Source: Bernardetia sp. (GTDB lineage Bacteria; Bacteroidota; Bacteroidia; Cytophagales; Bernardetiaceae). From it: 64,000 nt of DNA. The position numbers and the translations under genes are program-made. Below, piece after piece: positions 11,542-51,359 of this stretch. The stretch is taken from positions 1-64,000 of the forward strand of contig NZ_JAHDIG010000005.1 of assembly GCF_020630935.1 (NCBI RefSeq), given 5' to 3'. The number at the start of each line of letters is the position of its first letter. The first letter of the stretch is position 1. The notes beneath the pieces are model-generated. The model was not told the origin of the DNA. It did not search any database and saw nothing but the letters and a program-made list of their open reading frames with translations.

Positions 11542-12183
11542 TTAAGACTCATCTGAAAGGTCTTCTTCTTCACTAAAAACATTACTATCTTCAGCTTCAC
11601 TATCTTCTTCATCATTGAGTGCATCTGCTAAAATTGTACCAGCTACTCCTACTGCAACAGCTTCCTCTACTCCTATTTCATTGTCATCATATTCGGTATC
11701 ATCGTAGTCTTCGTCATCTTCATAATCGTCATCTTCATAATCGTCATCAAAAAAATCATCATCAGTATCGTAATACTCTCCTCCAGCTGATTTCGAACGC
11801 TTATACATTCTCCTCACTCTCTCAATATCCGCCTTTACTTTCAGAGAATCAGCAACGCCTAATTGTAAGTCTATTTCTATTTGTTCGATAAAATCCATTT
11901 CCTCTTCTGTAACAATGTTGTCTTCCATTACTCTATCAATGAGGTTTTGCAAGACTTGTATTTTGATACTATTTAATTCGGAATCTGACATGCCCAACCT
12001 AGATTGTAATGCTCTCACATCTGACATCTCTTCTGTGGTAATTACTCCATCGTCGCAGGCTTCCAAAATAGCTACAAAAAGCTGTTGTCGGGCTTGTGTA
12101 GCCCTAGCAGAATCTGGAGTAGGGGCAGCCGAACCACTAAAAAGTTGCTGAAATTTGTTAATAAGGTCTTTGAGTATGCTCAT
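11542..12183 (-). CDS. Hypothetical protein with a helical N-domain and an extremely acidic D/E/Y-rich C-terminal tail
   Basis: The tail reads YDTDDDFFDDDYEDDDYEDDEDYDDTEYDDNE...EEEDLSDES. Possibly TerB-like, but I cannot assign a family with confidence. Confidence 0.45.
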   Translation of the reverse strand: MSILKDLINKFQQLFSGSAAPTPDSARATQARQQLFVAILEACDDGVITTEEMSDVRALQSRLGMSDSELNSIKIQVLQNLIDRVMEDNIVTEEEMDFIEQIEIDLQLGVADSLKVKADIERVRRMYKRSKSAGGEYYDTDDDFFDDDYEDDDYEDDEDYDDTEYDDNEIGVEEAVAVGVAGTILADALNDEEDSEAEDSNVFSEEEDLSDES

Positions 12184-12304: not shown

Positions 12305-12856
12305 TTATAAAAAGAATTTTTCTGCTAATTTAATATTGATAAGTTCTATACTTTCCAAAATTGTAAACTGACTACTATCAATAATCAAATCTACAGTATT
12401 AGACATTGGTTTTTCAAAAGGACTACTGATACCTGTAAACTCTTTTATTTCCCCTGCTCTAGCTTTTTTGTACAAACCTTTTACATCTCTTTGTTCGCAA
12501 ATTTCTAAAGGACAATCGACAAATATTTTGAATAAATTTTGATGCTGATTGTCTCTTTCAAAAATATCAGTTACTAAATTTTGATGCTGATGTGTGGGCG
12601 TGATAAAAGAGGATAGAACGACAAAACCACTTTCATAAAAAAGTTTTGCTACTTCTGCCGAACGGCGAATATTCTCTGTTCGGCCTTCTAAAGAAAACCC
12701 AAGATTATTATTTAAGCCATTTCGAAGCAAATCTCCATCTAATTTTTTTAGTAGGGAAGATGGAGATTTTTGTTTTAAATCCTCAAAAAGAGCATTAGCA
12801 AGAGTGGTTTTTCCAGACCCAGAAAGACCTAAAAACCAAATAACACAGGGATTCAT
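12305..12856 (-). CDS. cysC: Adenylyl-sulfate (APS) kinase
   Basis: P-loop VIWFLGLSGSGKTTLANAL. Probable start at MNPCVIWF (12856). The listed ORF runs to 12910 through the upstream terminator. Confidence 0.85.
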   Translation of the reverse strand: MNPCVIWFLGLSGSGKTTLANALFEDLKQKSPSSLLKKLDGDLLRNGLNNNLGFSLEGRTENIRRSAEVAKLFYESGFVVLSSFITPTHQHQNLVTDIFERDNQHQNLFKIFVDCPLEICEQRDVKGLYKKARAGEIKEFTGISSPFEKPMSNTVDLIIDSSQFTILESIELINIKLAEKFFL

Positions 12857-12910
12857 AAAATATAAGTCTGTTTGATAAAGAATGAAATATTTTTTGAGTA
12901 TAGTATTCAT

Positions 12911-12946
12911 AAAAAAACGCCTTAATTTATATAAAAAAGGCGTTTC
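12911..12946 (-). terminator. Rho-independent terminator downstream of ftsZ (stem AAACGCCTT/AAGGCGTTT plus a U-tract on the minus strand)
   Basis: Perfect 9-bp stem. The A7 run at 12911-17 is a T-run on the minus strand. Confidence 0.6.
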
Positions 12947-14573: not shown

Positions 14574-14964
14574 TGAATGCTTATTTCAAGGTTTTGGGCT
14601 TGTTTGTATATTTTATTTTCATTCATACTAATTTTACGTCAAAAAATGTGTACTTACTTTAAATACGGTATAAAAAATTAATCTGAATGAACTTTTAATT
14701 ATAGCTATATTTTTAGTACCAAACTACTAAGTTCTATTTTAGTTTATTATTTTGTTATTATCTCAACCACTTTCAAACCTTTGGTTTACTTCAATGGGCT
14801 TTACTTTGTTTAGTTAGAAAGCTATTTAATCACAAAGAAACAAAAATAGTTTGATTAAGCTACGATAAGTTAAGCTAAATTATTTCAAATATGCAAAAAA
14901 AAAATAAAAAATCTAAGTTTTTTTGTGTTTAATTTTGAAATGTCAGTTTTTTATAAAAATCCAT

Positions 14965-15004
14965 CAAAAAATCCATTCCTCTAACTGATTAGAAGAATGG
15001 ATTT
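14965..15004 (-). terminator. Rho-independent terminator downstream of gltA (stem AAATCCATTC/GAATGGATTT)
   Basis: 10-bp stem. The A6 run on + gives a U-tract on the minus strand. Confidence 0.55.
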
Positions 15005-15032
15005 AATATAGCTATTATTCAACATTTACAGA

Positions 15033-16364
15033 TTAGTTGAAATCTTCTTGAATAACGTCTGCGTGATCTACTTTCTTACGCTCCGACATAGGAACAAATG
15101 CTCTTTCGTTTTCTCCAGTATAAATCTGACGAGGACGACCGATAGGGTGTTTTTGTTCCAACATTTCTTTCCACTGTGCAATCCAACCTGGCAAACGTCC
15201 CATTGCAAACATTACTGTAAACATATCTGTTGGCAAGTTCATTGCACGGTAGATAATTCCAGAATAGAAATCTACGTTAGGGTAAAGTTTTCTTTCGATA
15301 AAGAACTCATCTTCTAAAGCTACTTGTTCAAGCTGTTTAGCAATACCTAATAATGGGTCTTCGATACCTAGTTTGCCTAAAACTTCATCACACGCCTTCT
15401 TCAAAATCTTCGCTCTTGGGTCGAAATTTTTATAAACACGGTGTCCGAATCCCATTAAGCGCATCTCACGATTTTTTACCTTTTTGATAAAGTCTTCTAA
15501 TGCCATTCCACTCTCATGGATTTCTTCTAACATCTCAATTACTTGCTGATTTGCACCACCATGAAGAGGACCGCTCAAGGCATTCGTAGCAGAAGCAATA
15601 GAAGCATAAATATTAGCCAATGAAGAACCAACAATACGAACTGTTGAAGTAGAACAGTTTTGTTCGTGGTCTGCATGAAGAATCAAAATTTTGTTTAAAG
15701 CACTTACCATTACAGGGTCAACTTCATATTGCTCTGTTGGTAAAGAGAACATCATTTTGAGGAAACGTGCGCCATAGTTAAGGCTGTTGTCAGGGTAATT
15801 TACTGGATGACCCATTTCATTTTTATATGACCAAGCTGCTATTGTAGGAACTTTTGCAATAAGACGGACAATAGACATATATACTTCTTCTGGAGAACGG
15901 TTTTGCTCCATAGATTCAGGATAAAATGTGCTGAGTACCGAAATCAAAGAAGAAAGTACAACCATAGGATGAGAAGCTGTAGGGAAGCCATCAAATAGCT
16001 TACGCATGTCTTCGTGAATGAGTGTATGGTTGGTAATATCGTTTTGGAATTTAGTGAGAGAGGCTTGGTCTGGAAGCTCTCCAAAGATAATAAGATAAGC
16101 CACCTCTAAGAAAGATGCTTTTTCAGCAAGCTCTTCTATGTTGTAGCCACGATAACGCAAAATTCCTTTTTCACCATTCAAAAATGTGATGGCGCTTTCT
16201 GTCGAACCCGTATTTTTAAAGCCGGGGTCAAGAGTAATAAGTCCTGTTGTGGCACGTAATGAGCCAATGTCGATGCCTACTTCTCCTTCTGTTCCTTCTA
16301 CAAGTGGTAATTCATAGCTTTTGCCTTCATAAGTGATAGTGGCAGTCTTTCCATTTTGTGACAT
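15033..16364 (-). CDS. gltA: Citrate synthase
   Basis: GFGHRVYKNFDPRA and other citrate synthase signatures. Probable start at MSQNGKTATITYEGKSYELP (16364); the listed ORF runs to 16436. Confidence 0.95.
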   Translation of the reverse strand: MSQNGKTATITYEGKSYELPLVEGTEGEVGIDIGSLRATTGLITLDPGFKNTGSTESAITFLNGEKGILRYRGYNIEELAEKASFLEVAYLIIFGELPDQASLTKFQNDITNHTLIHEDMRKLFDGFPTASHPMVVLSSLISVLSTFYPESMEQNRSPEEVYMSIVRLIAKVPTIAAWSYKNEMGHPVNYPDNSLNYGARFLKMMFSLPTEQYEVDPVMVSALNKILILHADHEQNCSTSTVRIVGSSLANIYASIASATNALSGPLHGGANQQVIEMLEEIHESGMALEDFIKKVKNREMRLMGFGHRVYKNFDPRAKILKKACDEVLGKLGIEDPLLGIAKQLEQVALEDEFFIERKLYPNVDFYSGIIYRAMNLPTDMFTVMFAMGRLPGWIAQWKEMLEQKHPIGRPRQIYTGENERAFVPMSERKKVDHADVIQEDFN

Positions 16365-16730
16365 ACGTATATTAGGGTTTGTACTGAAAGTTGTGTTCTG
16401 TAAAAATATTTCTTTATTTGATAAAGTATAAAGCAAAAAGAGTCTTAAAAGTTAGGATACAAATGACTTTAATTTTGCAGTTCTGTCAATAAGTCCACAA
16501 TTTAACCAAAAAAAAAGCATAAAAACAAGTTTGTTTCCCTTTGCTTCTAATAATTTGAAAGAATTAAATCAGAAAAGAAAATACTATTGAGAAATAAATA
16601 TACAATGAAATGAAACACATTTCTAGTCTTTTGATGTAAAAATTATAATAATAAATGTTATCAAGGTTAAATTTAGTAAAGTTTCTTTCTTCATAGTAAG
16701 CCAAAAGCCATGGAGAAATAGATACGATTT

Positions 16731-27522: not shown

Positions 27523-30006
27523 TTACTCTTTACTTTCTGTATTTTCAGGCAATTTCAAGCTATCCAAAACGCTGCTGAGTTGTGTGCCTTTCAGAAGATT
27601 TGCAAACACGTCTGCCACAGAGTTTCCTCCCAAAATTGCGAGTGGAGCCATCGAATCTGCCATTTTTTGAGCAAGTGCTTTATCAGAAAACGATTGCAAG
27701 GCTGCAATAAGGTCTGGAGAAACAGCTTTTGCTTTGGCTACTACTGCCTCTACTTCTGTTTGTTCTTCCAAAATGTACTGCTCTAGCTGTTTTTGAGCTT
27801 TTTCTATCTCAACGGCATCTTTAGCTCTTTGTCTAGTAAGTTCGTCTTCATTGATTTGATTGAGCGTTTTTTGTTCGTCTAAATTAGCTTGTAAATGACG
27901 CTCCTTACTCATTATTTCACTTTCAATTTTAGATAAAGTAACTTCTAAGAGTTTTTTGACTTCTTCTTTTTGAAGTTCGTAGATTTTCTGCTTAGTTTCA
28001 GATTGTGTAGCTGCGATTTGTCTTGTAATGGCTTCGCTTTCTTGTGTAAATTCTAATTTTCGTTTTTCAGCATTTATGCGAAGTGTTTGCATAACTGTAT
28101 CTTGCTGTGAAGAAATAAGTAGATTTTCAATATTTGCATCACCCAAACTTATATCCAAAATCTCAACGTCGTAGATACGCATTCCATTTTCTTCAAAAAG
28201 TCGTCCTGTGCGTTTCCCTGTTTTCTTGTCAGACTCTCCTAAAATAGCATCTCTCAAAATCGTAATTCCATTGGCATAAAATTCCATAATTGGATATCTT
28301 CTGACAGTATTTCGGATATACGAACGCATGTGGTCTGTTAAAAATTTGACATAGTTTTCCACATTAAACCACTTTTCAGAATCTCCTTCAAAATTGACAC
28401 GATACGAAAGATGTATTCTAACTTGCGTGTAATCTGCCGATTCTGCCATTATCTCATCCGAAACTTTATTATACAACACTCTCAAATAAACCGTTTTGAT
28501 AGAATTTGCTGTTGTTTTTGGTGTTCCTGTTGAAAGCTCTATACCTTCTAATTCTTCATCGTATTCCAAAAGATACGATTGAGGACCTTCAATGACTTTT
28601 CGTTTTCCTGTCTTGCTAACCACTAAAACAGCATATCCTGTCCAAGGCGCAATCGTAACAGCTCCTTCAAATTTTGTATCTAATGTCACCATACGAGGTG
28701 GCGTAAACGAACTATCACGATTAAATTCGTCGCTTACTACTTCGTCTGCAATCTTAGCTTTTTTTCGTAATTGTTGTTGTGGAGCTTCTGGTGCTTGATT
28801 TTGTTCTTGTAATTCAAAATCAGTAACGAAATTATCGTTTTTAGCAATACTTTGCATCGCCATATTGTACTCCATTGCTTCATTGTTATTTGGAAACCAA
28901 AGTGATGTTTGCTTTTTTGTCAAAACTCTTCGTACCAAAACAAATTCTCTTGGGTCTGGCAAAAACATCGCTGCACCTTTTTTGAGAGCGACTGTTCCTG
29001 TTTTACGATTGAGGTAATAACGTCCTTCTCCTGCTGGAATAGCAATGGCATAATGACGTTCTTTTTTTCCATAACGAATAATGGCGTGTTCTGGGCGAGG
29101 ATAATAAATCATTTGGTCTTTTCCAGTAATGAAAAGCTCGTCGCCTTCTTTATACTCGTTTTTTCCTTCTTTATAAGGAGCAATGACTTTTATATAGAGT
29201 CCACTCATTTCATTGAGTTCGATGGCTTTAAATTTTCGTTGTCCATTTTTCTCAATAAACTCTTCTGTTGGTTCTGGAAAGACTACTTTTGGACCTTGAA
29301 TATAGCGTTTGTTTCCATCTTCGTTGAGCAAAATACAGTATTCCAAACGTTCTAAAGTTACAGCCTCTCGCACATATTCATCTGTTTCGTAACCGTATGA
29401 GTCTGTTCTGACCACTTCAATTCCTGTGGGTGGAATATAAAACGAAACAGCATCGCCACGAATAATCAGAAGCTGACCCATTGTAAGACTTTCAGCTACT
29501 TTTTTGAGTTCTTTTACTTCTTTATCCTCTCCTTCTTTTGTTTTGATGACGGATTTACCCCAATTTTCTCGTGCTTGTTGTTCATCATACACACGAACCA
29601 ATAAATATTGATTCGAACTCAAATTATGTCCTCTGACTACTCTTGCCATTTGTCCAGCCCAAAGTGCAAAAGAAATAGGACCTGAAATATTTACTTTTCT
29701 TCCTACATTGAGTTCGGCTAAATTGTTACTTGTTCCTACTTTTGGTGGGTTATTATCTTTTGAAGGGTTTTTCAAAACTATATACCATCCTTCTGGTGCA
29801 ATGACAAAAGAACGCATCGAATCTTCTAAAGTACATTTTTCGAAACGTTTGGTTTCGTCGTCGAACATCACAGGACGGTCAGTATTGGCAAGGCTAGTTT
29901 TGTAAGGACCTACATAAACATTGATATTTCCTTTAGTTTGGTCAGAAATAAATGCGTACTCATTAGGAGCTAAAACTAAATCTCTTTCTCGGTTACTATC
30001 AGACAT
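27523..30006 (-). CDS. Major vault protein (MVP) homolog
   Basis: N-terminus PNEYAFISDQTKGNINVYVGPYKTSL...RPVMFDDE parallels the first MVP repeat of eukaryotic MVP ([36 protein letters not shown]). About 8 tandem ~55-aa repeats, a shoulder region, a long C-terminal coiled-coil cap-helix, and a C-terminal ...PLAILGGNSVADVFANLL region resembling the MVP cap ring. Confidence 0.8.
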   Translation of the reverse strand: MSDSNRERDLVLAPNEYAFISDQTKGNINVYVGPYKTSLANTDRPVMFDDETKRFEKCTLEDSMRSFVIAPEGWYIVLKNPSKDNNPPKVGTSNNLAELNVGRKVNISGPISFALWAGQMARVVRGHNLSSNQYLLVRVYDEQQARENWGKSVIKTKEGEDKEVKELKKVAESLTMGQLLIIRGDAVSFYIPPTGIEVVRTDSYGYETDEYVREAVTLERLEYCILLNEDGNKRYIQGPKVVFPEPTEEFIEKNGQRKFKAIELNEMSGLYIKVIAPYKEGKNEYKEGDELFITGKDQMIYYPRPEHAIIRYGKKERHYAIAIPAGEGRYYLNRKTGTVALKKGAAMFLPDPREFVLVRRVLTKKQTSLWFPNNNEAMEYNMAMQSIAKNDNFVTDFELQEQNQAPEAPQQQLRKKAKIADEVVSDEFNRDSSFTPPRMVTLDTKFEGAVTIAPWTGYAVLVVSKTGKRKVIEGPQSYLLEYDEELEGIELSTGTPKTTANSIKTVYLRVLYNKVSDEIMAESADYTQVRIHLSYRVNFEGDSEKWFNVENYVKFLTDHMRSYIRNTVRRYPIMEFYANGITILRDAILGESDKKTGKRTGRLFEENGMRIYDVEILDISLGDANIENLLISSQQDTVMQTLRINAEKRKLEFTQESEAITRQIAATQSETKQKIYELQKEEVKKLLEVTLSKIESEIMSKERHLQANLDEQKTLNQINEDELTRQRAKDAVEIEKAQKQLEQYILEEQTEVEAVVAKAKAVSPDLIAALQSFSDKALAQKMADSMAPLAILGGNSVADVFANLLKGTQLSSVLDSLKLPENTESKE

Positions 30007-31320: not shown

Positions 31321-31360
31321 ATACTGATTACTGGTAACTGTTTACTGATTACTGATAGAA
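31321..31360 (+). repeat. Copy of the dispersed (TTACTGNTAACTG)x2 motif immediately 5' of the queA start codon
   Basis: ATACTGATTACTGGTAACTGTTTACTGATTACTGATAGAAG then GTG start. Same motif at 47535-47570 and 48013-48047. Confidence 0.5.
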
Positions 31361-36313: not shown

Positions 36314-37327
36314 TCAATACTCATCATCATCATCATTTCTGCGCTGAGTACCTCTTTCTTCTGGATTAGCTATCGATTCACGCATTTGCGTATCAGCTTG
36401 TAAGTTTCTTAAGCGCTGGTAGTCCATAATTCCGAAGTTTCCTGTGCGTAAGGCTTCTGAAAGAGCTTTTGGAACTTCTGCCTCTGCTTCGATAACTTTT
36501 GCTCTTGATGCCTGTGCTTTGGCTTTCATTTCTTGCTCTACGGCGATTGCCATTGCACGACGTTCTTCGGCTTTTGCTTCGGCTACTCTTAAGTCGGCAT
36601 TAGCTTGTTCGATTTGGAGTTTTGCACCAATATTTTCCCCAACATCAATATCTGCAATATCAATAGAGAGGATTTCAAAGGCTGTTCCTGCGTCTAATCC
36701 TTTTTCCAAAACGAGTTTAGAAATTCGGTCTGGATTTTCCAATACGTCTTTGTGAGAGTGCGACGAACCTACTGCCGTTACGATACCCTCACCCACACGA
36801 GCCAAAATAGTTTCCTCACCAGCACCACCGACAAGTTGAGCAATGTTAGCACGAAGCGTAACACGAGCTTTTGTGATAAGTTGAATACCATCTTGTGCTA
36901 CTGAAGTAACAGCATTTGTAGTAATTACTTTTGGATTTACAGAAATTTGTACGGCTTCTGAAACGTCTCTACCTGCTAGGTCGATGGCTGCAGCTTGTTT
37001 GAAACTTAGGTCAATGTTGGCTTTATCGGCTGCAATGAGTGCTTTTACCACTTCCTCTACACTACCACCTGCCAAAAAGTGCGTCTCCAAATCTGATGCT
37101 GTTATTTCTTTCAAACCTGCTTTACTAGCATTAATGAGAGGCAAAACAATTTTGCGTGGGCGAACATTTCGGATTCGCATGGCTACAAGTTCCAAAAGCC
37201 CTAAACGAACACCAGAAAATATAGCTGTAATCCATAAGTTAATTGGAATGTAGGTGCGTATGAGAAGGGCAAGCACCACTATAATTACACCAAAAATAGC
37301 AAATAAAACAGTTTGTTCTAACGACAT
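36314..37327 (-). CDS. floA: Flotillin-like protein FloA (UPF0365/YqfA family, SPFH domain)
   Basis: Strong similarity across the protein to B. subtilis YqfA/FloA (e.g. ...[29 protein letters not shown]... versus [29 protein letters not shown] here). Confidence 0.85.
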
Positions 37328-37421
37328 AGATAGATAGATAATGGATGACTAGAAATTATTAACTAATAACTTTACATTAACAGTAAGGCTAAGGCATGCC
37401 TTAGCCTCTACGAATATAAAC

Positions 37422-38819
37422 TTACAGAATATACTGACTTAAATCTTTGTTTTTAACAAGAGTTGCAAGTTTTTCTTGTACCATTTCTTTTGTAATGACT
37501 ACATGAGCATTTGCTGGAATGGTATCTGGTACATCAAATAAAATTTCGTTCAGAAGATGACTCATAACAGTATGCAAACGTCTTGCACCAATATTTTCTA
37601 CTTCTGTATTAATATGAAAAGCAATATCTGCAATTTCTTCTAATGCCTCTTCCTGATAAGTGAGTTTTACATTCTCAGCATCCAAAAGAGCAACATATTG
37701 CTTGCTAAGGGCATTTTTTGGGTCTTTCAAGATTTTGTAGAAGTCTTCTTTAGTTAGGGAGTTGAGTTCTACACGAATTGGAAAACGTCCTTGCAGTTCT
37801 GGAATGAGGTCAGAAGGTTTCGAAACGTGAAACGCTCCTGCTGCTACAAACAAAATATGGTCTGTATTGACAATTCCGTGTTTGGTAGTTACGGCACTTC
37901 CTTCTACAATTGGTAGCAAATCACGCTGTACACCTTCACGGCTTACATCGACTCCACCACCTTTATTGCTAGACGAAGCCACTTTATCAATCTCATCAAT
38001 AAAAATAATTCCAGAATTTTCAGCTTTCTTGATGGCTTCAGCTTTTACTTCGTCCATATCAATAAGTTTGTAAGCCTCTTCTTCTAAAAGTAATTTTCTA
38101 GCTTCTTCTATCGTAACTTTGCGCTTTTTAGAACGGCTAGGAAGCATGCCACTAAGCATTTCTTGAAGATTCATCATCGAAACTTCATCAATTGCTCCAC
38201 CTACAACACCCACACCAGGGTTATTACTTGATTCTAAGGTAATTTCTATTTTTCTATCTTCTAATTCGCCAGCACGTAATTTTTCTCTAAAACGTTCTCT
38301 TGTTCTTTCATTGAGTTCGGCATCTGAAGTTGGCATCTCATCATTAGAAAACCCAACAGCAGACGGTGTAGTGGTTGGCTTTCTGTTTTTGAGAGGTGGA
38401 ATAAGTGCATCTAAAATAATATCTTCAACAGCTTTTTCTGCTTTTTGCTTTACAGCGTCACGCTTTTCTGTCTGTACAAGTTTGACAGCTTGCTCCACCA
38501 AGTCTCTGACCATACTTTCTACATCACGCCCTACATAACCCACTTCCGTAAACTTTGAAGCCTCTACTTTAACAAAAGGAGCATTGGCTACCTTTGCCAA
38601 ACGACGAGCAATTTCAGTTTTACCAACACCTGTTGAGCCTATCATCAAGATATTGTTGGGCATAATTTCACGCTGCATGTCAGATTTAACATGCATACGT
38701 CGCCAACGGTTACGCAATGCGATAGCTACATTTCTTTTTGCTTCGTGTTGTCCTATAATGTACTTGTCTAACTCTGCAACAATTTGTTTGGGCGTATAAT
38801 AGATGTTATTGTCAATCAT
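37422..38819 (-). CDS. hslU: ATP-dependent protease ATPase subunit HslU
   Basis: MTPKQIVAELDKYIIGQ..., Walker A GSTGVGKTEIARRLAK, I-domain, sensor motifs. Confidence 0.95.
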   Translation of the reverse strand: MIDNNIYYTPKQIVAELDKYIIGQHEAKRNVAIALRNRWRRMHVKSDMQREIMPNNILMIGSTGVGKTEIARRLAKVANAPFVKVEASKFTEVGYVGRDVESMVRDLVEQAVKLVQTEKRDAVKQKAEKAVEDIILDALIPPLKNRKPTTTPSAVGFSNDEMPTSDAELNERTRERFREKLRAGELEDRKIEITLESSNNPGVGVVGGAIDEVSMMNLQEMLSGMLPSRSKKRKVTIEEARKLLLEEEAYKLIDMDEVKAEAIKKAENSGIIFIDEIDKVASSSNKGGGVDVSREGVQRDLLPIVEGSAVTTKHGIVNTDHILFVAAGAFHVSKPSDLIPELQGRFPIRVELNSLTKEDFYKILKDPKNALSKQYVALLDAENVKLTYQEEALEEIADIAFHINTEVENIGARRLHTVMSHLLNEILFDVPDTIPANAHVVITKEMVQEKLATLVKNKDLSQYIL

Positions 38820-40309: not shown

Positions 40310-41461
40310 TCAAAATAATTCCTCATGCAGTTTTTCTGCTGATTTTTCTAAAATCGCTAAAAGCTGTAATTCGTATTTCGAATACTGGTCTAAGTTTTCT
40401 ATAAAGTCTTTTGAAAGCTCTGTTTTATCCTTTGATTTTGCTTTCAAAAATTTCTCTGTCTGTTTTTCTATCTCTTTTTCTGATTTATTTAACGTTTCAT
40501 TCAATACTTCTGGATGAATGTAGTAATTTCTACAAATGGTAACCGTATTGCCTAATTTATTAGCTACTTTTCTAACCAAAACAGTCTCTAGTTTTTTGCG
40601 TGGACTTTTTTCTACTTCTTCTCTTGCTTCACTGATAAGTTCCAAAGTAAGAATACTTGCTCCCCACGTTCTGAACGTTTTGGCTGTGAAATGATGTTTC
40701 ATTTTTTCTTCCAAATATTCGTTTACATCATGTGAGTTGATGCGTTGCCACTTGTTATCTTCATCTTTATATCTAAAAAGTTCTTGCCCAGAAAGAGCAG
40801 CACATTCTTTTAGTTTTTTGATAAGAGATTTGTTAGCAATACTTACTGTTCTGACTTTGTTACTTTTTGCTTTGTAGCAAAGTGAAATCTTGTGTTTTGT
40901 TTCTTCATCAATTTTGATATGTTTTCTACGAAGTGTTGTAAGTCCGTAGGTTTTATTAGATTTGAGATAACGGTCGCTACCTATTCTCAAAAGTCCTTCT
41001 TGCATAAGTTCAATGGCTAGAGCAACTACCTTTTCTTTGTTCCACGTTCTTTTGCGAAGGTCTTTTTTTATAGCTCTTCGAAGACTAGCAAGTGAATATC
41101 CAAACTCTTGAAGTTTCAAAAATTTTGTTTTGTTCCTATACTCGTTCCAATCTGGGTGATAAATAGACTGTTTTCGGTTACGCTCATCTCTACCTACAGC
41201 TTGCAAATGTCCGTTTTTATCTTTGCATATCCATACACTGCGCCACGCTGGAGGGATACCTAAATTTTCTATACGTAGTAGTTTTTGTTTGCTTTTAATA
41301 GGCTTTCCTTTTGTACTCAAATAGACAAATTTCTCACCTTTTTTTTTGCGTGTATAACCTTTTTCTGTATCAGAAGAAGAATATAAATGAGGAGGATGTT
41401 TTGGGTAAACCGATTTTCCTACCACCATAATCGGAATTTTATTTTCTGTCGGATGTATCAT
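40310..41461 (-). CDS. Type IB DNA topoisomerase (poxvirus-like bacterial TopIB)
   Basis: AVGRDERNRKQSIYHPDWNEYRNKTKF...LLRIGSDRYLKSNKTYGLTTLRRKH..., then the ...FRTWGAS... and C-terminal Tyr region NYYIHPEV. Matches the conserved R/K/R/R/H/Y catalytic core of bacterial TopIB. Confidence 0.8.
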   Translation of the reverse strand: MIHPTENKIPIMVVGKSVYPKHPPHLYSSSDTEKGYTRKKKGEKFVYLSTKGKPIKSKQKLLRIENLGIPPAWRSVWICKDKNGHLQAVGRDERNRKQSIYHPDWNEYRNKTKFLKLQEFGYSLASLRRAIKKDLRKRTWNKEKVVALAIELMQEGLLRIGSDRYLKSNKTYGLTTLRRKHIKIDEETKHKISLCYKAKSNKVRTVSIANKSLIKKLKECAALSGQELFRYKDEDNKWQRINSHDVNEYLEEKMKHHFTAKTFRTWGASILTLELISEAREEVEKSPRKKLETVLVRKVANKLGNTVTICRNYYIHPEVLNETLNKSEKEIEKQTEKFLKAKSKDKTELSKDFIENLDQYSKYELQLLAILEKSAEKLHEELF

Positions 41462-43370: not shown

Positions 43371-43432
43371 GATTTAGTGAAATTTATATATAGAAAACTC
43401 CTTTGAAATCTTCTTGATTTTGAAGGAGTTTT

Positions 43433-43783
43433 TTATTTTTCATCATCTAAAGACTCAATGATGGCTTTTATTTGTGAGTTTGAGATAGTATCTGTTTCAG
43501 ATTTATCATATATAGAAAGAAGTGTAATCAATATATCTACTTCGTCTTCTTCTATTTCTTCTAAATAGGTAATAATACGAAACCCTCCACTTTTGCCTTT
43601 TCCTTTACTTTTGCAAGCAAGTCTAATTTTGTAAGCATTTTCTAGGATTTGAGTTCCTAACTTGGGATTATCTTTTAATTCTTGCGCCAACTCTGCAAGT
43701 TCAGATTTTAGTGAGGCATATTTCTTCAAAAACTTCTTAGCTTCTCTCTTAAAGTTTTCACTAATTACAACTTCATTAGGCAT
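43433..43783 (-). CDS. RelE/HigB-like (Gp49-type) toxin of a type II toxin-antitoxin pair
   Basis: KGKSGGFRIITY motif characteristic of the HigB/Gp49 RelE-fold. 116 aa. 3-bp gap from the upstream small gene. Confidence 0.55.
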   Translation of the reverse strand: MPNEVVISENFKREAKKFLKKYASLKSELAELAQELKDNPKLGTQILENAYKIRLACKSKGKGKSGGFRIITYLEEIEEDEVDILITLLSIYDKSETDTISNSQIKAIIESLDDEK

Positions 43784-43786: not shown

Positions 43787-43999
43787 TTAAAATTCGTTTA
43801 AGAAATCATCTAAAGATTGGAGTTTTTTATCTTCTTGACGAGCAGTTTTTACTTCTGCAACAGCGTCTTTTATTCCTTGCAAAACTTCTAGTTTTTTACG
43901 CAATTTTTGTATTTCTTCTTCCATCAAATTCCATTCGGCTATCGGAATTTGTACAGCTATTTTATTTCCTTCTGTATCAACTAAATAAGTCGTGTTCAT
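43787..43999 (-). CDS. Putative antitoxin partner (70 aa)
   Basis: Small upstream ORF, tightly spaced from the toxin. Helical charged C-terminus. Family not recognised. Confidence 0.4.
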   Translation of the reverse strand: MNTTYLVDTEGNKIAVQIPIAEWNLMEEEIQKLRKKLEVLQGIKDAVAEVKTARQEDKKLQSLDDFLNEF

Positions 44000-44121: not shown

Positions 44122-45402
44122 CTATTTACAATAACGAATATCAAAAGGAATAATTTCGAACTGTGTGCCATTCCATTTTAACGTTGTTCTTTCCATAAAT
44201 TTTCCTCCACCTTTTCTAGTTTTATTTAACTCTCTCTCTTCTGCTGATGAAATAGGATTTAATTTTCCATTCGGCAAATCAAAGTAAGGATAACGATTGG
44301 GGTAAAAAGGTCTAGTGTTAAAACTAAGTTCTTTTTTTTGTTTGTCATAAGCAGGTAATATCCAATAAATTCTACTGTATTTTGCAAAACTCCTTGAAGA
44401 TTTCCCTGCAATACAATCCTTACAACGCACTATTTTTCCCTTCTTTATTTCAAAACCTTGAACAACTACAAACCAACTATCCATTCCTCCTCCAATATAA
44501 TCATACACTACTACATACAAAGGGTTTCCTTCTCTTTCAACTTTGAAAATTGTAATAGGTAAAGCCCAAAAATTTTCTTCGCTTGTTTCTAACTCTCCTT
44601 TTTCGTTTTGATATTCATGTTCAAATTTGAAAGTAGATATGTCTTCTGTAATAATAACATCTTCTGAAAAGCGATAAACTCCATAAGCTATTGCAGACCG
44701 ATTGTTCCAACCTTGATTATAACTAAACGTATAAATACGAAAATTTCCATCATCAGAAATAATAATCCCTTCTTTTTCAACATAACGGGGTAAACCATAT
44801 TTAAAGCCATTTGGCTCTTTCAAGGCTTGTTTTAATAGTTTACTTATCATTCCAATAGAATCAGCACGCTTATCATCAATCATAATTGGATAAACATCCA
44901 AATAAGAGAGCAACTTGGTTTCAAGTTCTTTAAGTTTTGCAGACGGTTCAATTTCACTTTTGAAATTATTTTTTGAAATATCTTTATAGTGAGCAGGAAA
45001 ATAGCGACCAAAATCTATTTTTGAAGTGTCTATAATCATTCGTACAGCAGCTCTTCCTACTACTGAATCTTTTTGGTAATTACGTGATAGAAAAGCTATC
45101 GTTTTAAACTTTGGGTTATTATTTACTCTACTCAAATCATATAATCCATAAAACAAAGCTGTTATGTCATTCATAGAATCAGGTAATTTGCAATTTGCTA
45201 ATTCTACATGAATTTGTGATAAACTATCCTTTTCTGTAACTGTATAAGCTGTTGAGTTGTAAATTTTCTCTAATACATCTGTTGCTCTTTCTTGCATGTC
45301 TTTACTTTCTATTTCAGAAAGCCATTTTTGGACAGGCTGTGGTTTATCTTTACATGAAAATAGACAAACAGAAAATAAAAATAAGATAGTTATTCTTTTC
45401 AT
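44122..45402 (-). CDS. Hypothetical lipoprotein, translationally coupled to ftsI
   Basis: Lipobox LFSCKDK. Its start abuts the ftsI stop (45402/45403). No MurE signatures. Confidence 0.5.
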   Translation of the reverse strand: MKRITILFLFSVCLFSCKDKPQPVQKWLSEIESKDMQERATDVLEKIYNSTAYTVTEKDSLSQIHVELANCKLPDSMNDITALFYGLYDLSRVNNNPKFKTIAFLSRNYQKDSVVGRAAVRMIIDTSKIDFGRYFPAHYKDISKNNFKSEIEPSAKLKELETKLLSYLDVYPIMIDDKRADSIGMISKLLKQALKEPNGFKYGLPRYVEKEGIIISDDGNFRIYTFSYNQGWNNRSAIAYGVYRFSEDVIITEDISTFKFEHEYQNEKGELETSEENFWALPITIFKVEREGNPLYVVVYDYIGGGMDSWFVVVQGFEIKKGKIVRCKDCIAGKSSRSFAKYSRIYWILPAYDKQKKELSFNTRPFYPNRYPYFDLPNGKLNPISSAEERELNKTRKGGGKFMERTTLKWNGTQFEIIPFDIRYCK

Positions 45403-47529
45403 CTACTCCTTCAACTTCAAATAAATTGTTTTTCCTTTTTGAATTGCTCCTCCTGGGTTGAGAGATTGTGAGACAATTCTCCCTTTGCCTTCAAAGGCGA
45501 CTTGCATTCCTAAGTTTTCCAATAAATACAGCGCATCACGCAAACGCATTCCACGCACATCTGGAATCAGACTTGCAGCAGCTTGATTGTCTATCCACAT
45601 AACTGTATCAGTAGCTACTTTGGTTTTTACCCATTGTTGAGCTGTTTGGTTCTGCGTTTTGATGCCTAACTGCGAACATACCAAATCCAAATCTGGACGG
45701 TAGCCAGCACGAATAAATGGCAAACGCATGTGCAAACTATCCATTGCTGTCGCTTCAACCTCTGAAAGAGGTTTGTGCAAATAACGTTGATATACCACAT
45801 CTGAAACTTGACGAAAAACAGGAGCAGCTACTTCGGCTGCATAACGCTTGTCTGTTTTTGGGTCATCAATCACAACGATACAAGAATATTTTGGATTATC
45901 GGCAGGGAAATATCCAGCAAAGGAAGTGTAGTGGTCTTCGGTATATTCTCCGTTTCTAACTTTTTCGGCTGTTCCTGTTTTTCCTGCAATCTGATAGGTT
46001 TTTGTATTAATTTTTTTAGCTGTTCCATTTTCTACTGCACCACGCAACATCGTTTGTAAAATCTTGACTGTTTTGTCTGAAATAATTTCTTTTTTTGTTG
46101 TTGTATTTTCAAAACTTTTCAAGACTTTTCCTGCTTGGCGAGTCTGACTGACAATAATTGGCTGAACAGTTACGCCATTGTTTGCAATCGCATTGTAAAA
46201 AGATAATGTTTGCAGAGGAGAGAGTTTTAGCTCATATCCAATAGACATCCAAGGCAGTGTACTTCCACTCCACGAAGAATCGGAAGGGGATTTTAGATAA
46301 GGTTGTGCTTCTCCAGCCATCTGAAAACCTAAAGGACGATTAAGACCAAATTTTTTGAGATAATCCACATATTTTTGCTCGTCTTTACGAAAATATTTCC
46401 ATACCAAAAGTGACATGCCTACATTGGAAGATTTTTCAAAAACCTCTTGTACACTTAGTTTTCCTAGTGCAGAAACATCACGCATAATGGCATCATCATA
46501 ATATTTATGAACGCCGTCACCTGTTTGTACGCTATCTTTCAATGAAATAGGAATGTCCTCATTTTCAAAAAGAGCAGCCATAGACATAAGCTTAAATGTC
46601 GACCCAGGTTCGGCAAGTCCCATATCTCCAACAGCATAATTATTGTTTTCTACATACGAACCGTTAGAGTTAATTCCTAAATTGACAAGAGCTTTTATTT
46701 TTCCAGTCTCTACTTCCATTAAAATAATAGAGCCATATTCAGCTTTGTATTGGCGAAGCGCATTTTGCAGAATCTGATGAACTGTATCTTGTAAGTTTAT
46801 ATCAATCGTTGTTTGAATATCAATCCCCGGTTTGGGTCTGACTTGCGACATGTCATCAACTGGTTTCCAAAAACCACCTGCAATGAGTTCATAAAGAGCT
46901 TCTCCTGCAACGCCTTGTAACTCACTATTGAAACTATATTCCAATCCTCTACCATTCAAAGATTGTGTAGAATCTTCGTCGGTTACAAAACCTATAGTAC
47001 GTCTTGCAAGGTCATTGAAAGGCAGAAAACGTTTGTCTGTTTGCTCATAAATTACACCTCCCTTATTTCTTCCTTCTCTAAAAATGGGAAATTGGGAGAG
47101 TTTTTTATATTCTTCGTGGCTAATAAGTTCTCGGCTTAGAATATGATATTTTTTGTCGTTTTTTCGGTCTTCTCTTAAAAGATTGACATAATAGCTTGGT
47201 TCGTGTTCTTTAAAGAAATCAGATAAAAGTATTCCTAAAGAATCTATCCCACTTTCAAAAACAGCACTATCAGCCACAGTAGGGTCAATTGCCACACGAT
47301 AAAAAGGCAAAGAAGTAGCCAAAAGGCTTCCATCATCTGCCAAAATACTTCCTCTAGTGGGTTGTACGTCTCGCATCTCTACGCCCCTAGCTTTGCTACT
47401 CCATTTTTCGCCCTCCACTATCTGAATGCTCATCATTTTATAGACAATCACTAAAGCAATAAGTGAGACGACTAAAAAAGCAATTCTGACACGAGCGAGT
47501 ATATATCTTCTTATTCCTGTTTTTGCCAT
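45403..47529 (-). CDS. ftsI: Penicillin-binding protein (FtsI/PBP3-like transpeptidase)
   Basis: N-terminal transmembrane anchor, dimerisation domain, and transpeptidase motifs STFKLMS, SSN, KTGT. Confidence 0.9.
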   Translation of the reverse strand: MAKTGIRRYILARVRIAFLVVSLIALVIVYKMMSIQIVEGEKWSSKARGVEMRDVQPTRGSILADDGSLLATSLPFYRVAIDPTVADSAVFESGIDSLGILLSDFFKEHEPSYYVNLLREDRKNDKKYHILSRELISHEEYKKLSQFPIFREGRNKGGVIYEQTDKRFLPFNDLARRTIGFVTDEDSTQSLNGRGLEYSFNSELQGVAGEALYELIAGGFWKPVDDMSQVRPKPGIDIQTTIDINLQDTVHQILQNALRQYKAEYGSIILMEVETGKIKALVNLGINSNGSYVENNNYAVGDMGLAEPGSTFKLMSMAALFENEDIPISLKDSVQTGDGVHKYYDDAIMRDVSALGKLSVQEVFEKSSNVGMSLLVWKYFRKDEQKYVDYLKKFGLNRPLGFQMAGEAQPYLKSPSDSSWSGSTLPWMSIGYELKLSPLQTLSFYNAIANNGVTVQPIIVSQTRQAGKVLKSFENTTTKKEIISDKTVKILQTMLRGAVENGTAKKINTKTYQIAGKTGTAEKVRNGEYTEDHYTSFAGYFPADNPKYSCIVVIDDPKTDKRYAAEVAAPVFRQVSDVVYQRYLHKPLSEVEATAMDSLHMRLPFIRAGYRPDLDLVCSQLGIKTQNQTAQQWVKTKVATDTVMWIDNQAAASLIPDVRGMRLRDALYLLENLGMQVAFEGKGRIVSQSLNPGGAIQKGKTIYLKLKE

Positions 47530-47534
47530 TTTTT

Positions 47535-47570
47535 CAGTTATCAGTAAACAGTTATCAGTTACCAGTAAAA
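47535..47570 (-). repeat. Copy of the (TTACTGNTAACTG)x2 motif immediately 5' of the ftsI start codon
   Basis: Minus strand reads TTTTACTGGTAACTGATAACTGTTTACTGATAACTGAAAAA then ATG. Confidence 0.5.
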
Positions 47571-47624
47571 TTTATAATTGGCTACACCGAGCTATCGTTT
47601 AGCCTTGTTTGAATAAATATTTTA

Positions 47625-48005
47625 TCACTTACTATTTTCTTCAATTCTGATAAGTGGTTTTTCTCTTTCTTTCAAGCCCAAACGCTGTGCTTTTTTTGCT
47701 ACTACTTGTCTTCTACTATCATAGACATAACGAGTTTGTAGGGCGTGATAATCAATTTGTAGTTCTTCTACTTCTTGGCGCAGACGAGTAACTTCCCTTA
47801 CTACTCTTTCTGTATAATGACGATTTGCAATGTAGATGATTCCAAAGAAAGAAACATACAAGACATAAGGCATTATACGAAACAAAAAATCTTGGTCGAT
47901 AGTAAAATCCCATTCAGCTAAGTTTCGCCAAAAACCTCGTTTTGTAGGAATTTTGATTTCCTGTTCTTCTTCTACGTGCTTAAATGTATTTTGAATTTTT
48001 GACAT
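47625..48005 (-). CDS. ftsL: FtsL-like cell division protein (single transmembrane helix, coiled-coil)
   Basis: Small bitopic protein with a central transmembrane segment (IMPYVLYVSFFGIIYIA) and a C-terminal coiled-coil, located immediately upstream of ftsI. Confidence 0.6.
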   Translation of the reverse strand: MSKIQNTFKHVEEEQEIKIPTKRGFWRNLAEWDFTIDQDFLFRIMPYVLYVSFFGIIYIANRHYTERVVREVTRLRQEVEELQIDYHALQTRYVYDSRRQVVAKKAQRLGLKEREKPLIRIEENSK

Positions 48006-48012
48006 ATTTTTT

Positions 48013-48047
48013 TCAGTTACCAGTAAACAGTTATTAGTTACCAGTAG
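48013..48047 (-). repeat. Copy of the (TTACTGNTAACTG)x2 motif immediately 5' of the ftsL start codon
   Basis: Minus strand reads CTACTGGTAACTAATAACTGTTTACTGGTAACTGAAAAAAAT then ATG. Confidence 0.5.
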
Positions 48048-48125: not shown

Positions 48126-48617
48126 CTACTCATTACTGTTAAGTGAACTTTCGCCACAGCCTTCAAACATCTGATTGTCGTATAAGAAAAAAGCGTGATA
48201 CTTATAATCTTTGTCTGACATTCCATCCGAACAAGCACATTCATAGCCATTCTTTACTACTAATTGAGCTGGTTTTCCATACTCATCTTCTAAGAAATAA
48301 GTATAATGAGATTCTATCAATCTGCCTTCGGCTGCTTTTGGCTCTACATAACTAAAAGTTATAGAATCTAATCCAAATTTAGAAAATAAAATTCCACTCT
48401 TACGAATTTCTGCATTCCAAAACGGTTCTGTACCGAAGGCTTTAAAAACTACTTCGTCTGTACTTACTTTTATAGTTTGTTTTTCAATGATTTTAGTTTC
48501 TGTTTTTTCTACTTCTGTATTTGTAGAGACAGAATCATCTGTACTTGCATGACTTTTTGAAGGTGCATCACAAGCAAAGCAAAATAATACTATAAATATA
48601 AGAATAATATATTTCAT
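48126..48617 (-). CDS. Hypothetical lipoprotein
   Basis: Lipobox LFCFACDAPS. C-terminal Cys-containing domain. Family not recognised. Confidence 0.45.
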   Translation of the reverse strand: MKYIILIFIVLFCFACDAPSKSHASTDDSVSTNTEVEKTETKIIEKQTIKVSTDEVVFKAFGTEPFWNAEIRKSGILFSKFGLDSITFSYVEPKAAEGRLIESHYTYFLEDEYGKPAQLVVKNGYECACSDGMSDKDYKYHAFFLYDNQMFEGCGESSLNSNE

Positions 48618-48674: not shown

Positions 48675-51359
48675 TTAAAAGCCTAAAGCCTCTTGAAACT
48701 CTGCTACTCTTCGGTCTTTTTCTTCATTTCTAATATCTGCCATCTTTTGCTCAATTTCTAGTTCTAATTTAGCTTCTTCTTCCAAAGCATTGCTCAAAAC
48801 GCTTAGAGCTTGATATGTATCTTTACGAGTTTGGACATTTGAATTAGTTTTGGATTGATAGGTCAGATATTCAATCCCTTTTTTCTGAACTTCTTTAGGC
48901 TGATTGATAAGATATTGTGTAAAGTGATTTAGAAAGTAACTCATTTCTGTACCCGAAATTCGGTCTAAATTCTTGACATACCAATCATATTTTCCTTCTA
49001 CACCAATAAGCGAATAATATTCTCCCAATCCATAAACAACATGACGCTCTTCGATGCTTTCCAAAGGCTCTACTTTTGAAAGTGCATTTGCTCCATAGGC
49101 ATTCATCAGAGAATACATAGTATTGCTAATTACAAAGTAAGAAGAGTCTTTTAATGTTTCTTCCCAAAGTTCTGGAAAAGCTCCGTATTGAGAAATAACA
49201 TCAATGGCTGAAGCACGTGTAAGGTTGTCCTTATCATTTTTTGCCATGTCTTTCAGAAGTTTGACAAGCTCTGTCAGTTTTTGAGTTACTTCATCAGACG
49301 TCGGATTTTCAATATTTTCAAGGTTATATTCTCCTAGTGAGCGAATGGCTTGTGTTCTGTATGCTCCAAAATCATTGTTTTTTGCTACCTCCATTAATAA
49401 ATTAAATGTTGTGTCATTGCCCACAGAAGCTGCTAAATTATATAACGCTTTCCTTTTTGGAATATAATTATCGTAATATTTTGCTTGCAAACGCCATTCT
49501 GCTGCCGATTTTTCATCCTGACTTATTTGAGCTAAGAGATAACCTGTTGGGTCAAAAACAACGAGTTCTGGATTTGATTCTGTTTTAAATTCAAAACTTT
49601 GTTCAGTTTTTTCCAAAATGAATTTGTGTCTTGTAGATTTTCCATTTTCCCAAATATCAATTTCTAAAGGTAAGAGATAGGTAGGTGAGTAGCGTAAATC
49701 TTGAGTTTGGGTAATGGTTAGTTTAAGTGTCCCGTCTTGATAATCTTGTAAAATAGTTAATTCTGGATGTCCTGCTTCCAAAAACCATTGATTGAAAAAC
49801 CATTTTAAATCTCTTCCTGTAACTTCTTCTGCAATAAGTCTAAAGTTATCAAGTTCAACAGACTTAAACGCATTTGCTTTGACATATTTTTGAAGAGTAA
49901 CCTTAAAGGCTTCATCTCCAATCTCTTGGCGCAACATATTCAAAATAACTGAACCTTTTGAATATGAATGAGAATCAAACATATCGTTTTCGCTTGTGTA
50001 GAAATAACGAATGATAGGCTCTCTCTTTGCCTGCGATTCTCTAAAATAACTTGTTTTATCATTGGCAAGGCTTTGGTCGGCTTCTTTTTTTCCTTTGCTG
50101 TGTTCTAACCAAAGATACTCTCCGTAGTTAGCAAAAGATTCGTTCATGGCTAAGTTTGCCCACGATTCGGCTGTCATAAGATCACCAAACCACTGATGAA
50201 AAAGCTCATGTGAAATAATTCCTTCCCAGTTGTGGTCTTCAATAGAACGTTTATCTACTAAAAGTCCTTCCATAAAAACAGAAGCACTCGTATTTTCCAT
50301 TGCTCCAGACGTATAATCACGGACAATCACTTGAGCGTATTTGCTCCAAGGATATTTGTAATCTAAATAATTAGAATAAAACTCTAGCATTTCAGGCGTT
50401 TTGCCAAAAACATCTTTTGCATACGGAGCATGCCATTTTTCAGTATAATAATATAGAGGAATATCCTTCCATTTGTCTTCAACAACAGCAAACTCTCCTA
50501 CTGCAACCATTGTAAGATATGGCGAGTGAGGTTTTTCCATTTTCCAATAATCAGTACGAGTTCCATCTCCATTTTTTTGAGAAGAAACTAACCTTCCATT
50601 AGAAAGTGTTTGTAAGGAATCAGCTATTGTGATATAAACTTCTTGTGTACCTCTAAAATTAGGAGCATCAAAGGTAGGAAACCACATAGCATTGTTTGAA
50701 GTCTCGCCTTGTGTCCAAATTTGTCTTGGTTTTCCTTTGGTTTTGCCTTCTGGATTGATAAAAAAGAAGCCTTCTTCTTCAATGTTTGAAAGAACGCTGT
50801 TTGTCCAAATAGCCTCGTTGGGTTTGGCAATGTAGCTTATCTCTATCGTAATTTTTTCTTCTTTTGTGTATTCTCTATCCAAACGAACAGTTAATAAAGT
50901 TCCATCATAATCCCATCGTAGAGGTTTTGTAGTCTCGTTTTTTGAACTTCCAGCCAAAAGTTTGATAGATTCGATAGCCAATCCTTTTGCATCTAAATCA
51001 ATTTTATTTTGAGAATAAAAATAAGGCTGAACAGTTAGGGTTGCTGTTGAGTAAATCCATTGATTTTCCCAGTCTGGTGTGATATTTAATTTTGTATGAA
51101 TTAAATCAAATATCTTGGTTTGGGTAGCATGATATTCTCCTTTTTTGGGTTTCCACAGAGGTTCTGGAAGGTCTTTTTTAAACTGATTTTCAGATTCTTC
51201 TATTGGTACAAGAAATTCATTGTTTGTATGAGTAGAATCTTGTGTATTGTTATTTGTAGCCTGTTGTGAAGATTTACAAGAAATAAAAAGTGAAGACGAA
51301 ATGAAAAATAGAACTGCAAAAAATAGAGACAGTGAAGAAAAATGTAGCGATTTATTCAT
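48675..51359 (-). CDS. M1-family zinc aminopeptidase (aminopeptidase N-like) with a C-terminal HEAT-like domain
   Basis: GAMEN motif (GAMENTSASVF) and HELFHQWFGD...NESFA (HExxH-x18-E). Signal peptide. Confidence 0.9.
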   Translation of the reverse strand: MNKSLHFSSLSLFFAVLFFISSSLFISCKSSQQATNNNTQDSTHTNNEFLVPIEESENQFKKDLPEPLWKPKKGEYHATQTKIFDLIHTKLNITPDWENQWIYSTATLTVQPYFYSQNKIDLDAKGLAIESIKLLAGSSKNETTKPLRWDYDGTLLTVRLDREYTKEEKITIEISYIAKPNEAIWTNSVLSNIEEEGFFFINPEGKTKGKPRQIWTQGETSNNAMWFPTFDAPNFRGTQEVYITIADSLQTLSNGRLVSSQKNGDGTRTDYWKMEKPHSPYLTMVAVGEFAVVEDKWKDIPLYYYTEKWHAPYAKDVFGKTPEMLEFYSNYLDYKYPWSKYAQVIVRDYTSGAMENTSASVFMEGLLVDKRSIEDHNWEGIISHELFHQWFGDLMTAESWANLAMNESFANYGEYLWLEHSKGKKEADQSLANDKTSYFRESQAKREPIIRYFYTSENDMFDSHSYSKGSVILNMLRQEIGDEAFKVTLQKYVKANAFKSVELDNFRLIAEEVTGRDLKWFFNQWFLEAGHPELTILQDYQDGTLKLTITQTQDLRYSPTYLLPLEIDIWENGKSTRHKFILEKTEQSFEFKTESNPELVVFDPTGYLLAQISQDEKSAAEWRLQAKYYDNYIPKRKALYNLAASVGNDTTFNLLMEVAKNNDFGAYRTQAIRSLGEYNLENIENPTSDEVTQKLTELVKLLKDMAKNDKDNLTRASAIDVISQYGAFPELWEETLKDSSYFVISNTMYSLMNAYGANALSKVEPLESIEERHVVYGLGEYYSLIGVEGKYDWYVKNLDRISGTEMSYFLNHFTQYLINQPKEVQKKGIEYLTYQSKTNSNVQTRKDTYQALSVLSNALEEEAKLELEIEQKMADIRNEEKDRRVAEFQEALGF

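Follow-up and report, generated by a model that had tools for sequence, protein, structure and literature searches.

In the canonical Bacteroidota/Cytophagales arrangement, the genes for cell division and peptidoglycan synthesis form a single cluster for division and the cell wall (dcw) with the order mraZ-rsmH-ftsL-ftsI-murE-mraY-murD-ftsW-murG-murC-ftsQ-ftsA-ftsZ. The history of dcw clusters has been described as mainly one of gene loss or delocalisation (PMC8871954). Cyanobacterial dcw genes are "completely dispersed" but for a few doublets, FtsA is absent from every cyanobacterial genome that was examined, and the clusters of Planctomycetes and Chloroflexi are split into sub-clusters (PMC8871954). 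Dispersal is already well known in other lineages, and Bernardetia is an ordinary case of it. This work concerns a stretch of 64,000 nt from Bernardetia sp. (Cytophagales; assembly GCF_020630935.1, contig NZ_JAHDIG010000005.1, positions 1 to 64,000; GC content 33.7%), hereafter the window, in which ftsL and ftsI form an isolated pair, ftsZ stands alone and a gene for a 426-aa lipoprotein lies flush with the end of ftsI. Very probably, the dcw cluster is dispersed at the level of the clade, the site after ftsI is an insertion hotspot, and the lipoprotein gene is a strain-variable occupant of that site.

The locus shares with the canonical cluster an FtsL_2-type ftsL beside ftsI, an ftsQ-like gene beside ftsA and the C-terminal peptide of FtsZ. 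It differs in that ftsL-ftsI and ftsQ-ftsA are the sole surviving pairs, and that rsmH, murE and ftsA are off their canonical positions. The likeness to cyanobacteria lies in dispersal over many loci with few surviving doublets (PMC8871954). However, Bernardetia belongs to another phylum, has kept FtsA, shows a recent dispersal at family level, and has an eroded intermediate among its relatives, in Thermoflexibacter. A search of the literature for work on division genes in Bernardetia or Flexibacter litoralis returned no paper on the subject.

An earlier reading of the window, made from the sequence only, had placed ftsL-ftsI at 45403-48005 with a lipoprotein gene instead of rsmH upstream, and the coordinates as well as the Pfam and tblastn results agree with it. 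The ftsL gene (47625-48005, minus strand) encodes a 126-aa protein of the Bacteroidota type, which matches Pfam family FtsL_2 (PF19579) at 3.5e-21 and with 75.4 bits against a curated cut-off of 24.6. Its translation reads as a transmembrane segment followed by a coiled coil or heptad-rich region. After a spacer of 95 nt, ftsI follows (45403-47529, minus strand), which is the direct succession of the canonical dcw order. Its 708-aa product is a class B penicillin-binding protein (PBP) with the domains PBP_dimer (PF03717) and Transpeptidase (PF00905), a C-terminal PASTA domain, and the catalytic motifs SxxK (STFK), SxN (SSN) and KTG (KTGT). FtsI is about 90% identical across Bernardetia, and the ratio of nonsynonymous to synonymous substitution rates (dN/dS) is 0.08 for ftsI and 0.04 for ftsL. 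The protein reached no equivalog cut-off in NCBIfam, and it is the adjacency to ftsL that suggests its identity as the division-specific FtsI.

Neither rsmH nor mraZ was found upstream of ftsL. Their place is taken by a gene for a 163-aa lipoprotein (48126-48617, minus strand; lipobox LFCFAC, followed by D; without Pfam match), preceded by an M1 peptidase gene (48675-51359, minus strand). The 163-aa lipoprotein is fast-evolving and dispensable, with 47-72% identity among Bernardetia strains and a gene that is missing in L003/L009 (loci in related genomes are cited here by L numbers). On the 3' side of ftsI, murE and the other mur and ftsW genes are replaced by the gene for the 426-aa lipoprotein (44122-45402, minus strand), a candidate RelBE pair and an S8 peptidase gene. 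The relB-like antitoxin gene (43787-43999, minus strand) matches PF18506 just above the cut-off (28.2 bits against 27). The relE/parE-like toxin gene (43433-43783, minus strand) matches RelE and ParE profiles below their cut-offs (PF06296, 2.2e-3) and phrog_5869 at 9e-14; the pair is kept in L001 and L003. A strong 20-bp hairpin at 43391-43435, where the relE-like and S8 peptidase genes converge, probably marks the end of a transcription unit that runs from ftsL to relE.

The window was searched with Pfam across nearly all open reading frames (ORFs) of at least 110 aa, shadow-like ORFs of longer genes being skipped, and none of mraZ, rsmH, murE, mraY, murD, ftsW, murG, murC, ftsQ and ftsA was found among them. 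tblastn with the dcw proteins of a relative, a query set without mraZ, found no further dcw gene in the window, and no mur or ftsW homologues in the window or in the Bernardetia loci examined. No family was returned for the window by an Rfam search. A scan for sigma-70 promoters performed no better than on shuffled sequence, as is expected for Bacteroidota promoters.

The solitary ftsZ gene (12969-14573, minus strand) is identified by TIGR00065 (7e-115; 384 bits against a cut-off of 295), PF00091 and PF12327. Its product contains the motif GGGTGTG, the C-terminal peptide DVPAYLRR and the tail NRFLHDNVD, of which the last two are also found in FtsZ of L019, where the cluster is canonical. Such a tail would fit an FtsZ that is still bound there by a partner such as FtsA. 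Upstream lies the citrate synthase gene gltA (15033-16436) and downstream the adenylyl-sulfate (APS) kinase gene cysC (12305-12910). The isolation of ftsZ between these two genes, with an upstream region put at about 460 bp, is confirmed, as the spacer (14574-15032, minus strand) measures 459 nt. By eye, a terminator-like hairpin with a T-run can be recognised after gltA within this spacer (about 14966-15003, minus strand), and a hairpin of 9 bp with a 13-nt loop and a T7 run lies after ftsZ (12911-12945, minus strand), directly before the ATG of cysC. The terminator that had been proposed for ftsZ is visible by eye, but it was not called by the terminator scan, which missed both flanking hairpins because their loops exceed 8 nt. 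Two genes 3' of ftsZ, a 213-aa protein without Pfam match is encoded (11542-12183, minus strand). Its C-terminal half is extremely acidic and repeat-rich, with runs of D, E and Y and 15-nt tandem repeats.

The same arrangement is found in relatives. The block of M1 peptidase gene, 163-aa gene (where present), ftsL and ftsI recurs in the complete chromosomes CP147017 (L001) and CP170094 (L007) and on several metagenome contigs. A contig search with a single FtsI query, which reaches close relatives only, returned Bernardetia only, and the ftsI synteny seen is accordingly that of the genus and not of the family. The order gltA-ftsZ recurs in B. litoralis DSM 6794 (L014, complete chromosome CP003345). 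Furthermore, a solitary ftsZ is present in Hugenholtzia roseola (L012) and in two related metagenome-assembled genomes (MAGs), L013 and L016, with FtsZ identities to the window of 68%, 62% and 60%, respectively; outside Bernardetia, the neighbours of the gene differ. L013 has a lone rsmH near dnaA, at a distance of 5.5 kb from ftsZ. In both MAGs, the gene directly after ftsZ (L013:11455-13656 and L016:11560-13770) encodes a conserved protein, about 735 aa long, with Apyc1/metallo-beta-lactamase and cyclic nucleotide (cNMP)-binding matches.

Two further MAGs, with FtsZ proteins 54% identical to that of the window, both retain the succession ftsQ(-like)-ftsA-ftsZ. One of them, L019, is labelled Bernardetiaceae and holds a full murE-mraY-murD-ftsW-murG-murC-ftsQ-ftsA-ftsZ run. 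The other, a Thermoflexibacter MAG (L015:1-11446), has an eroded cluster that consists of a Mur ligase gene, mraY, ftsW, an insert, murG, two inserts, an ftsQ-like gene, ftsA and ftsZ. This cluster is without murD and murC, and genes of the HD_4, 23S_rRNA_IVP and FemAB-like acetyltransferase types are inserted among ftsW, murG and the ftsQ-like gene. As ftsZ is solitary in the relatives listed above, whereas L015 and L019 retain the order, dispersal is a trait of the Bernardetia/Hugenholtzia clade and not of the strain only. The proposed fragmentation, with ftsL-ftsI and ftsZ as separate units, is thus borne out by the synteny of relatives.

The genes for FtsA and an FtsQ-like protein were located elsewhere. 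With Thermoflexibacter FtsA as the query, FtsA proteins of Hugenholtzia and of Bernardetia sp. ABR2-2B were retrieved, the latter with 70% identity. The cluster of Bernardetia FtsA at 90% identity (P0173) has 30 members, including those of strains DSM 6794, OM2101, Wsw4-3y2 and ABR2-2B. One FtsA with the taxid (1937974) and accession series of the window proteins is encoded on a different contig of 57.9 kb, which appears to belong to the window's own assembly. In ABR2-2B, the genes run uppS, bamA, a small ORF, three copies of skp, a 256-aa gene and ftsA, followed by a convergent gene; neither mur genes nor ftsZ adjoin ftsA. The 256-aa protein shares 43% identity (3e-44) with the one that Thermoflexibacter L015 has at the ftsQ position and 39% (2e-46) with its counterpart in L019. 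Owing to this homology, the ftsQ-ftsA doublet can be said to survive, downstream of uppS-bamA-skp. The statement that ftsZ is without ftsA accordingly holds locally, where gltA lies upstream of ftsZ, but not genus-wide, where a conserved FtsA follows an ftsQ-like gene at another locus. A complete canonical dcw cluster elsewhere in the genome, with a second ftsI or ftsZ, receives no support, as a single FtsZ turned up for each Bernardetia genome and ftsA has neither mur genes nor ftsZ beside it.

These arrangements suggest the following course. In the lineage to which Bernardetia and Hugenholtzia belong, an ancestral Bacteroidota dcw cluster would have been broken by rearrangement into small, separately transcribed units. 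Among them would be ftsL-ftsI, the ftsQ-like gene with ftsA 3' of uppS-bamA-skp, a lone ftsZ, which in Bernardetia came to lie behind gltA, and, in one related MAG, a lone rsmH. The old ftsI-murE junction would have turned into a flexible insertion site that takes up a C5-methylase/HaeII-type system with an insertion sequence (IS), AbiEi-type or RelBE-type genes, or nothing. In the window strain, the lipoprotein gene would probably be co-transcribed by read-through from the ftsL promoter. Division is most likely still carried out by the normal FtsZ/FtsA/FtsQLI machinery with only the gene linkage lost, since every core division protein examined is intact and conserved.

Downstream of ftsI lies a flexible hotspot with restriction-modification, AbiEi, RelBE-type and IS cargo; small antitoxin-like ORFs also occur there. 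The lipoprotein gene follows ftsI with a gap of 0 nt in the window, 10 nt in L001 and 11 nt in L003/L004/L009, which are the same contig or identical in sequence. In L008 (2189-4119), a C5 methylase gene and a 308-aa ORF come first and the lipoprotein gene thereafter. About 440 nt with a small ORF precede a frameshifted copy in L010 (12124-12563). AbiEi-type genes occupy the site in L006 (3364-5209) and L011 (12136-14113), and strain OM2101 (L007:12167-15086) has a methylase gene and a HaeII-type endonuclease gene split by an IS4/5 transposase gene there. Thus, the lipoprotein gene is missing after ftsI in three of the seven Bernardetia genomes (L006, L007 and L011) and is set apart from it by insertions in L008 and L010. 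RelBE-type genes lie 3' of it in the window, L001 and L003.

No close orthologue of the 426-aa protein was returned for B. litoralis DSM 6794, OM2101, ABR2-2B and MNP-M8, four of the five named strains, from a protein collection in which the FtsZ of all four was found. Distant family members with 29-39% identity are encoded at unrelated loci with no division genes near. The member in L002 (38% identity) lies between accD-like and rfbB-like genes, and that of Bernardetia sp. ABR2-2B (L017; 29-33% identity) between a DUF389 gene and a sortilin/BNR gene. The simplest reading of this distribution is that the lipoprotein gene is a strain-variable passenger of the hotspot and not a conserved division factor.

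Within the window, the ftsI stop codon TAG (45403-45405) directly adjoins the ATG of the lipoprotein gene at 45402, just as the sequence-only reading had reported, though the abutment is not kept in L001 and L003. The encoded protein carries a lipoprotein signal (MKRITILFLFSVCLFSC, followed by KDK) with the lipobox LFSC and is predicted to be lipidated. Every full-length homologue has a signal peptide closed by a Cys in or beside the matching column. The dN/dS of the gene is 0.12-0.17, compared with 0.11 for the M1 peptidase gene and the lower values of ftsI and ftsL given above, which indicates a real gene under purifying selection. The family is small, with seven matches among 5.8 billion proteins and nine representatives in an exhaustive HMMER search of 1.84 billion proteins. 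A CxxC motif (C327, C330) and a C-terminal Cys are conserved in it.

Searches for relatives of known function gave little. The 426-aa protein has no match in Pfam or NCBIfam, including the known lipoprotein families of division and peptidoglycan synthesis, and none in PADLOC and PHROGs. No similarity to any known division or peptidoglycan-binding domain was found. An AlphaFold model based on 13 sequences (pLDDT 78, pTM 0.75) predicts a helical domain (residues 24-211) and a beta-rich, propeller-like domain (213-420). Foldseek of this model against the PDB returned nothing at E <=1e-3 and no informative fold match, and a sequence-profile search of the PDB returned designed helical proteins only. 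The predicted combination of a helical N-terminal and a propeller-like beta domain suggests, at low confidence, an envelope lipoprotein that binds or scaffolds, with a strain-specific role and not as a core part of the divisome. Envelope lipoproteins such as LpoA/LpoB, Pal/TolB and BamB-like propeller proteins regulate peptidoglycan synthases or division. The 426-aa protein would resemble them as a lipoprotein with modelled helical and propeller-like beta domains whose gene adjoins that of a PBP in some strains. It differs in that it shows no sequence similarity or specific fold similarity to them, and in that its gene is not co-conserved with the PBP gene.

Short tandem repeats precede both genes of the ftsL-ftsI pair. 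A heptanucleotide array of five units (TACTGGT/AACTGAT) ends 3 nt before the start of ftsI (47533-47567, minus strand), and another (TACTGGT/AACTAAT/AACTGTT...) ends 6 nt before that of ftsL (48012-48046, minus strand). An array of the same unit lies before queA (31322-31356). Across the six Bernardetia strains compared, the array before ftsI has 4-10 units and lies 2-21 nt from the start codon (L001:7810-7843, L006:1142-1176, L007:9928-9999, L010:9949-9994 and L011:9959-9992, besides the window). The unit depends on the strain, being CGTAATT in L001, L007 and L010 and TTCTAAA/TTCTAAC in L006 and L011. Such arrays are few, numbering about 13 in the roughly 250 kb of Bernardetia DNA examined. 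Inverted heptad copies allow the ftsL-ftsI spacer RNA of L001, L007 and L010 to fold into strong hairpins; the window and L011 lack such hairpins, so no conserved RNA structure is indicated.

Long arrays of the unit AACTGGT/AACTGAT are present in at least 120 metagenome contigs, often immediately preceding an ATG or adjoining other heptad arrays. The unit of the window accordingly belongs to a widespread STRR-like class of repeats and is not specific to dcw genes. Mazel and co-workers reportedly described STRR-type heptanucleotide tandem repeats of filamentous cyanobacteria in 1990. The arrays resemble these in consisting of tandem 7-nt units in intergenic DNA; they differ in that the genome belongs to Bacteroidota, that the array stands directly before ftsI in six strains, and that its unit varies between strains. 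MraZ-type operator repeats, which recur about every 10 nt, were considered as an explanation of the arrays and rejected, because the period here is 7 nt and the unit also precedes queA and is present in at least 120 unrelated metagenome contigs.

Another repeat lies within ftsZ itself. A run of eleven A (13325-13335, minus strand; codons S-K-K-K-I) in the linker region is the longest homopolymer of the window and its only coding-region run of at least 10 bases. The type strain, B. litoralis DSM 6794, has A10 at this position, and the resulting frameshift leaves ftsZ in two parts, a core of 417 aa and an ORF of 101 aa with the conserved tail (L014:11100-11620). A second, non-identical FtsZ of 417 aa from a metagenome contig (P0030) ends at the same point. 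The A10 alleles may reflect two occurrences of the same homopolymer sequencing error, or the run may be a genuine slippage-prone site.

For the lipoprotein gene, two other explanations have to be weighed. The sequence-only reading saw in its product a candidate lineage-specific factor of the divisome or of peptidoglycan synthesis, such as an outer-membrane-anchored regulator of FtsI kept in fixed proportion to it by translational coupling. This would agree with the abutting stop and start codons in the window and the spacing of 10-11 nt in L001 and L003, with the orientation of the gene, which is that of ftsI wherever it is present, and with the purifying selection on it; the modelled helical and beta domains would also be a plausible format for an envelope regulator. 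Against the proposal, the gene is not co-conserved with the division genes, and its relatives at unrelated loci are one of the observations that the sequence-only reading had itself named as refuting. It is absent after ftsI in three of seven genomes and displaced by insertions in two more, four of five named strains returned no close orthologue, the family members in L002 and L017 lie near no division gene, and neither a division-lipoprotein match in Pfam or NCBIfam nor an informative fold match was obtained. We therefore regard a dedicated division role as distinctly improbable. Alternatively, the gene might be the cargo of a mobile or defence islet that integrated after ftsI, and might travel with its toxin-antitoxin or restriction-modification neighbours and serve them, for example in surface exclusion or in the masking of phage receptors. 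Restriction-modification, AbiEi, RelBE and IS genes are indeed found at the ftsI site in different strains, and the RelBE-type pair comes next after the lipoprotein gene in the window, L001 and L003. That the lipoprotein has no PADLOC or PHROG match, that its gene occurs without RelBE in L008 and L010, that no integrase or repeat boundaries were seen, and that housekeeping genes flank the distant members elsewhere makes such a function unlikely.

Other explanations concern the dispersal as a whole. The window derives from a Bernardetia sp. contig of 113.5 kb, its 426-aa protein and its FtsZ being identical to NCBI proteins of Bernardetia sp. (taxid 1937974), and assembly or binning of a metagenome-derived contig could in principle have produced the fragmentation. 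This explanation is refuted and has practically no probability left, since the same order is present in independent Bernardetia genomes, including the complete chromosomes CP147017, CP170094 and CP003345, as well as in independent metagenome contigs. A further proposal is that this thread-forming clade uses the break-up of its dcw cluster for regulation. Two slippage-prone elements, namely the heptad arrays before ftsI (here also before ftsL) and the A11/A10 run in the ftsZ linker, would then tune division apart from cell-wall synthesis and set filament length. In DSM 6794 and one environmental relative, the A10 alleles would separate the core of FtsZ from the tail that binds FtsA, and the lipoprotein could add modulation of FtsI in the strains that carry it. 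Such a regulatory use seems quite improbable.

Clade-level dispersal with a hotspot after ftsI and a strain-variable lipoprotein gene remains the very probable explanation, and two observations weigh against it. The genes murE, mraY, murD, ftsW, murG, murC and mraZ lie beyond the loci examined, and some of them may still stand together in a sub-cluster. Moreover, where the lipoprotein gene is present, it always has the orientation of ftsI and in three of five carriers lies 0-11 nt from it, which is compatible with a strain-specific functional link to ftsI.

Several other genes of the window may be mentioned. A bacterial homologue of the major vault protein of eukaryotes is encoded at 27523-30006 (minus strand); this 827-aa protein matches MVP_shoulder (1.9e-32) and a Vault_3 repeat. 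The gene for a bacterial type IB topoisomerase (40310-41461, minus strand; Topoisom_I and Top1B_N_bact) is conserved beside the ftsI region in other Bernardetia strains. A gene for the flotillin FloA adjoins that of an AAA ATPase of the AAA_2/ClpB-D2-small type (36314-38819, minus strand), and the pair is also found near the ftsI region in L003.

The dispersal at family level within Bacteroidota, the eroded cluster of Thermoflexibacter and the canonical cluster of L019 together provide a small natural series on what holds the dcw genes together. In these genomes, adjacency is a poor guide to function, and the gene that lies flush with ftsI does not deserve annotation as a factor of division.

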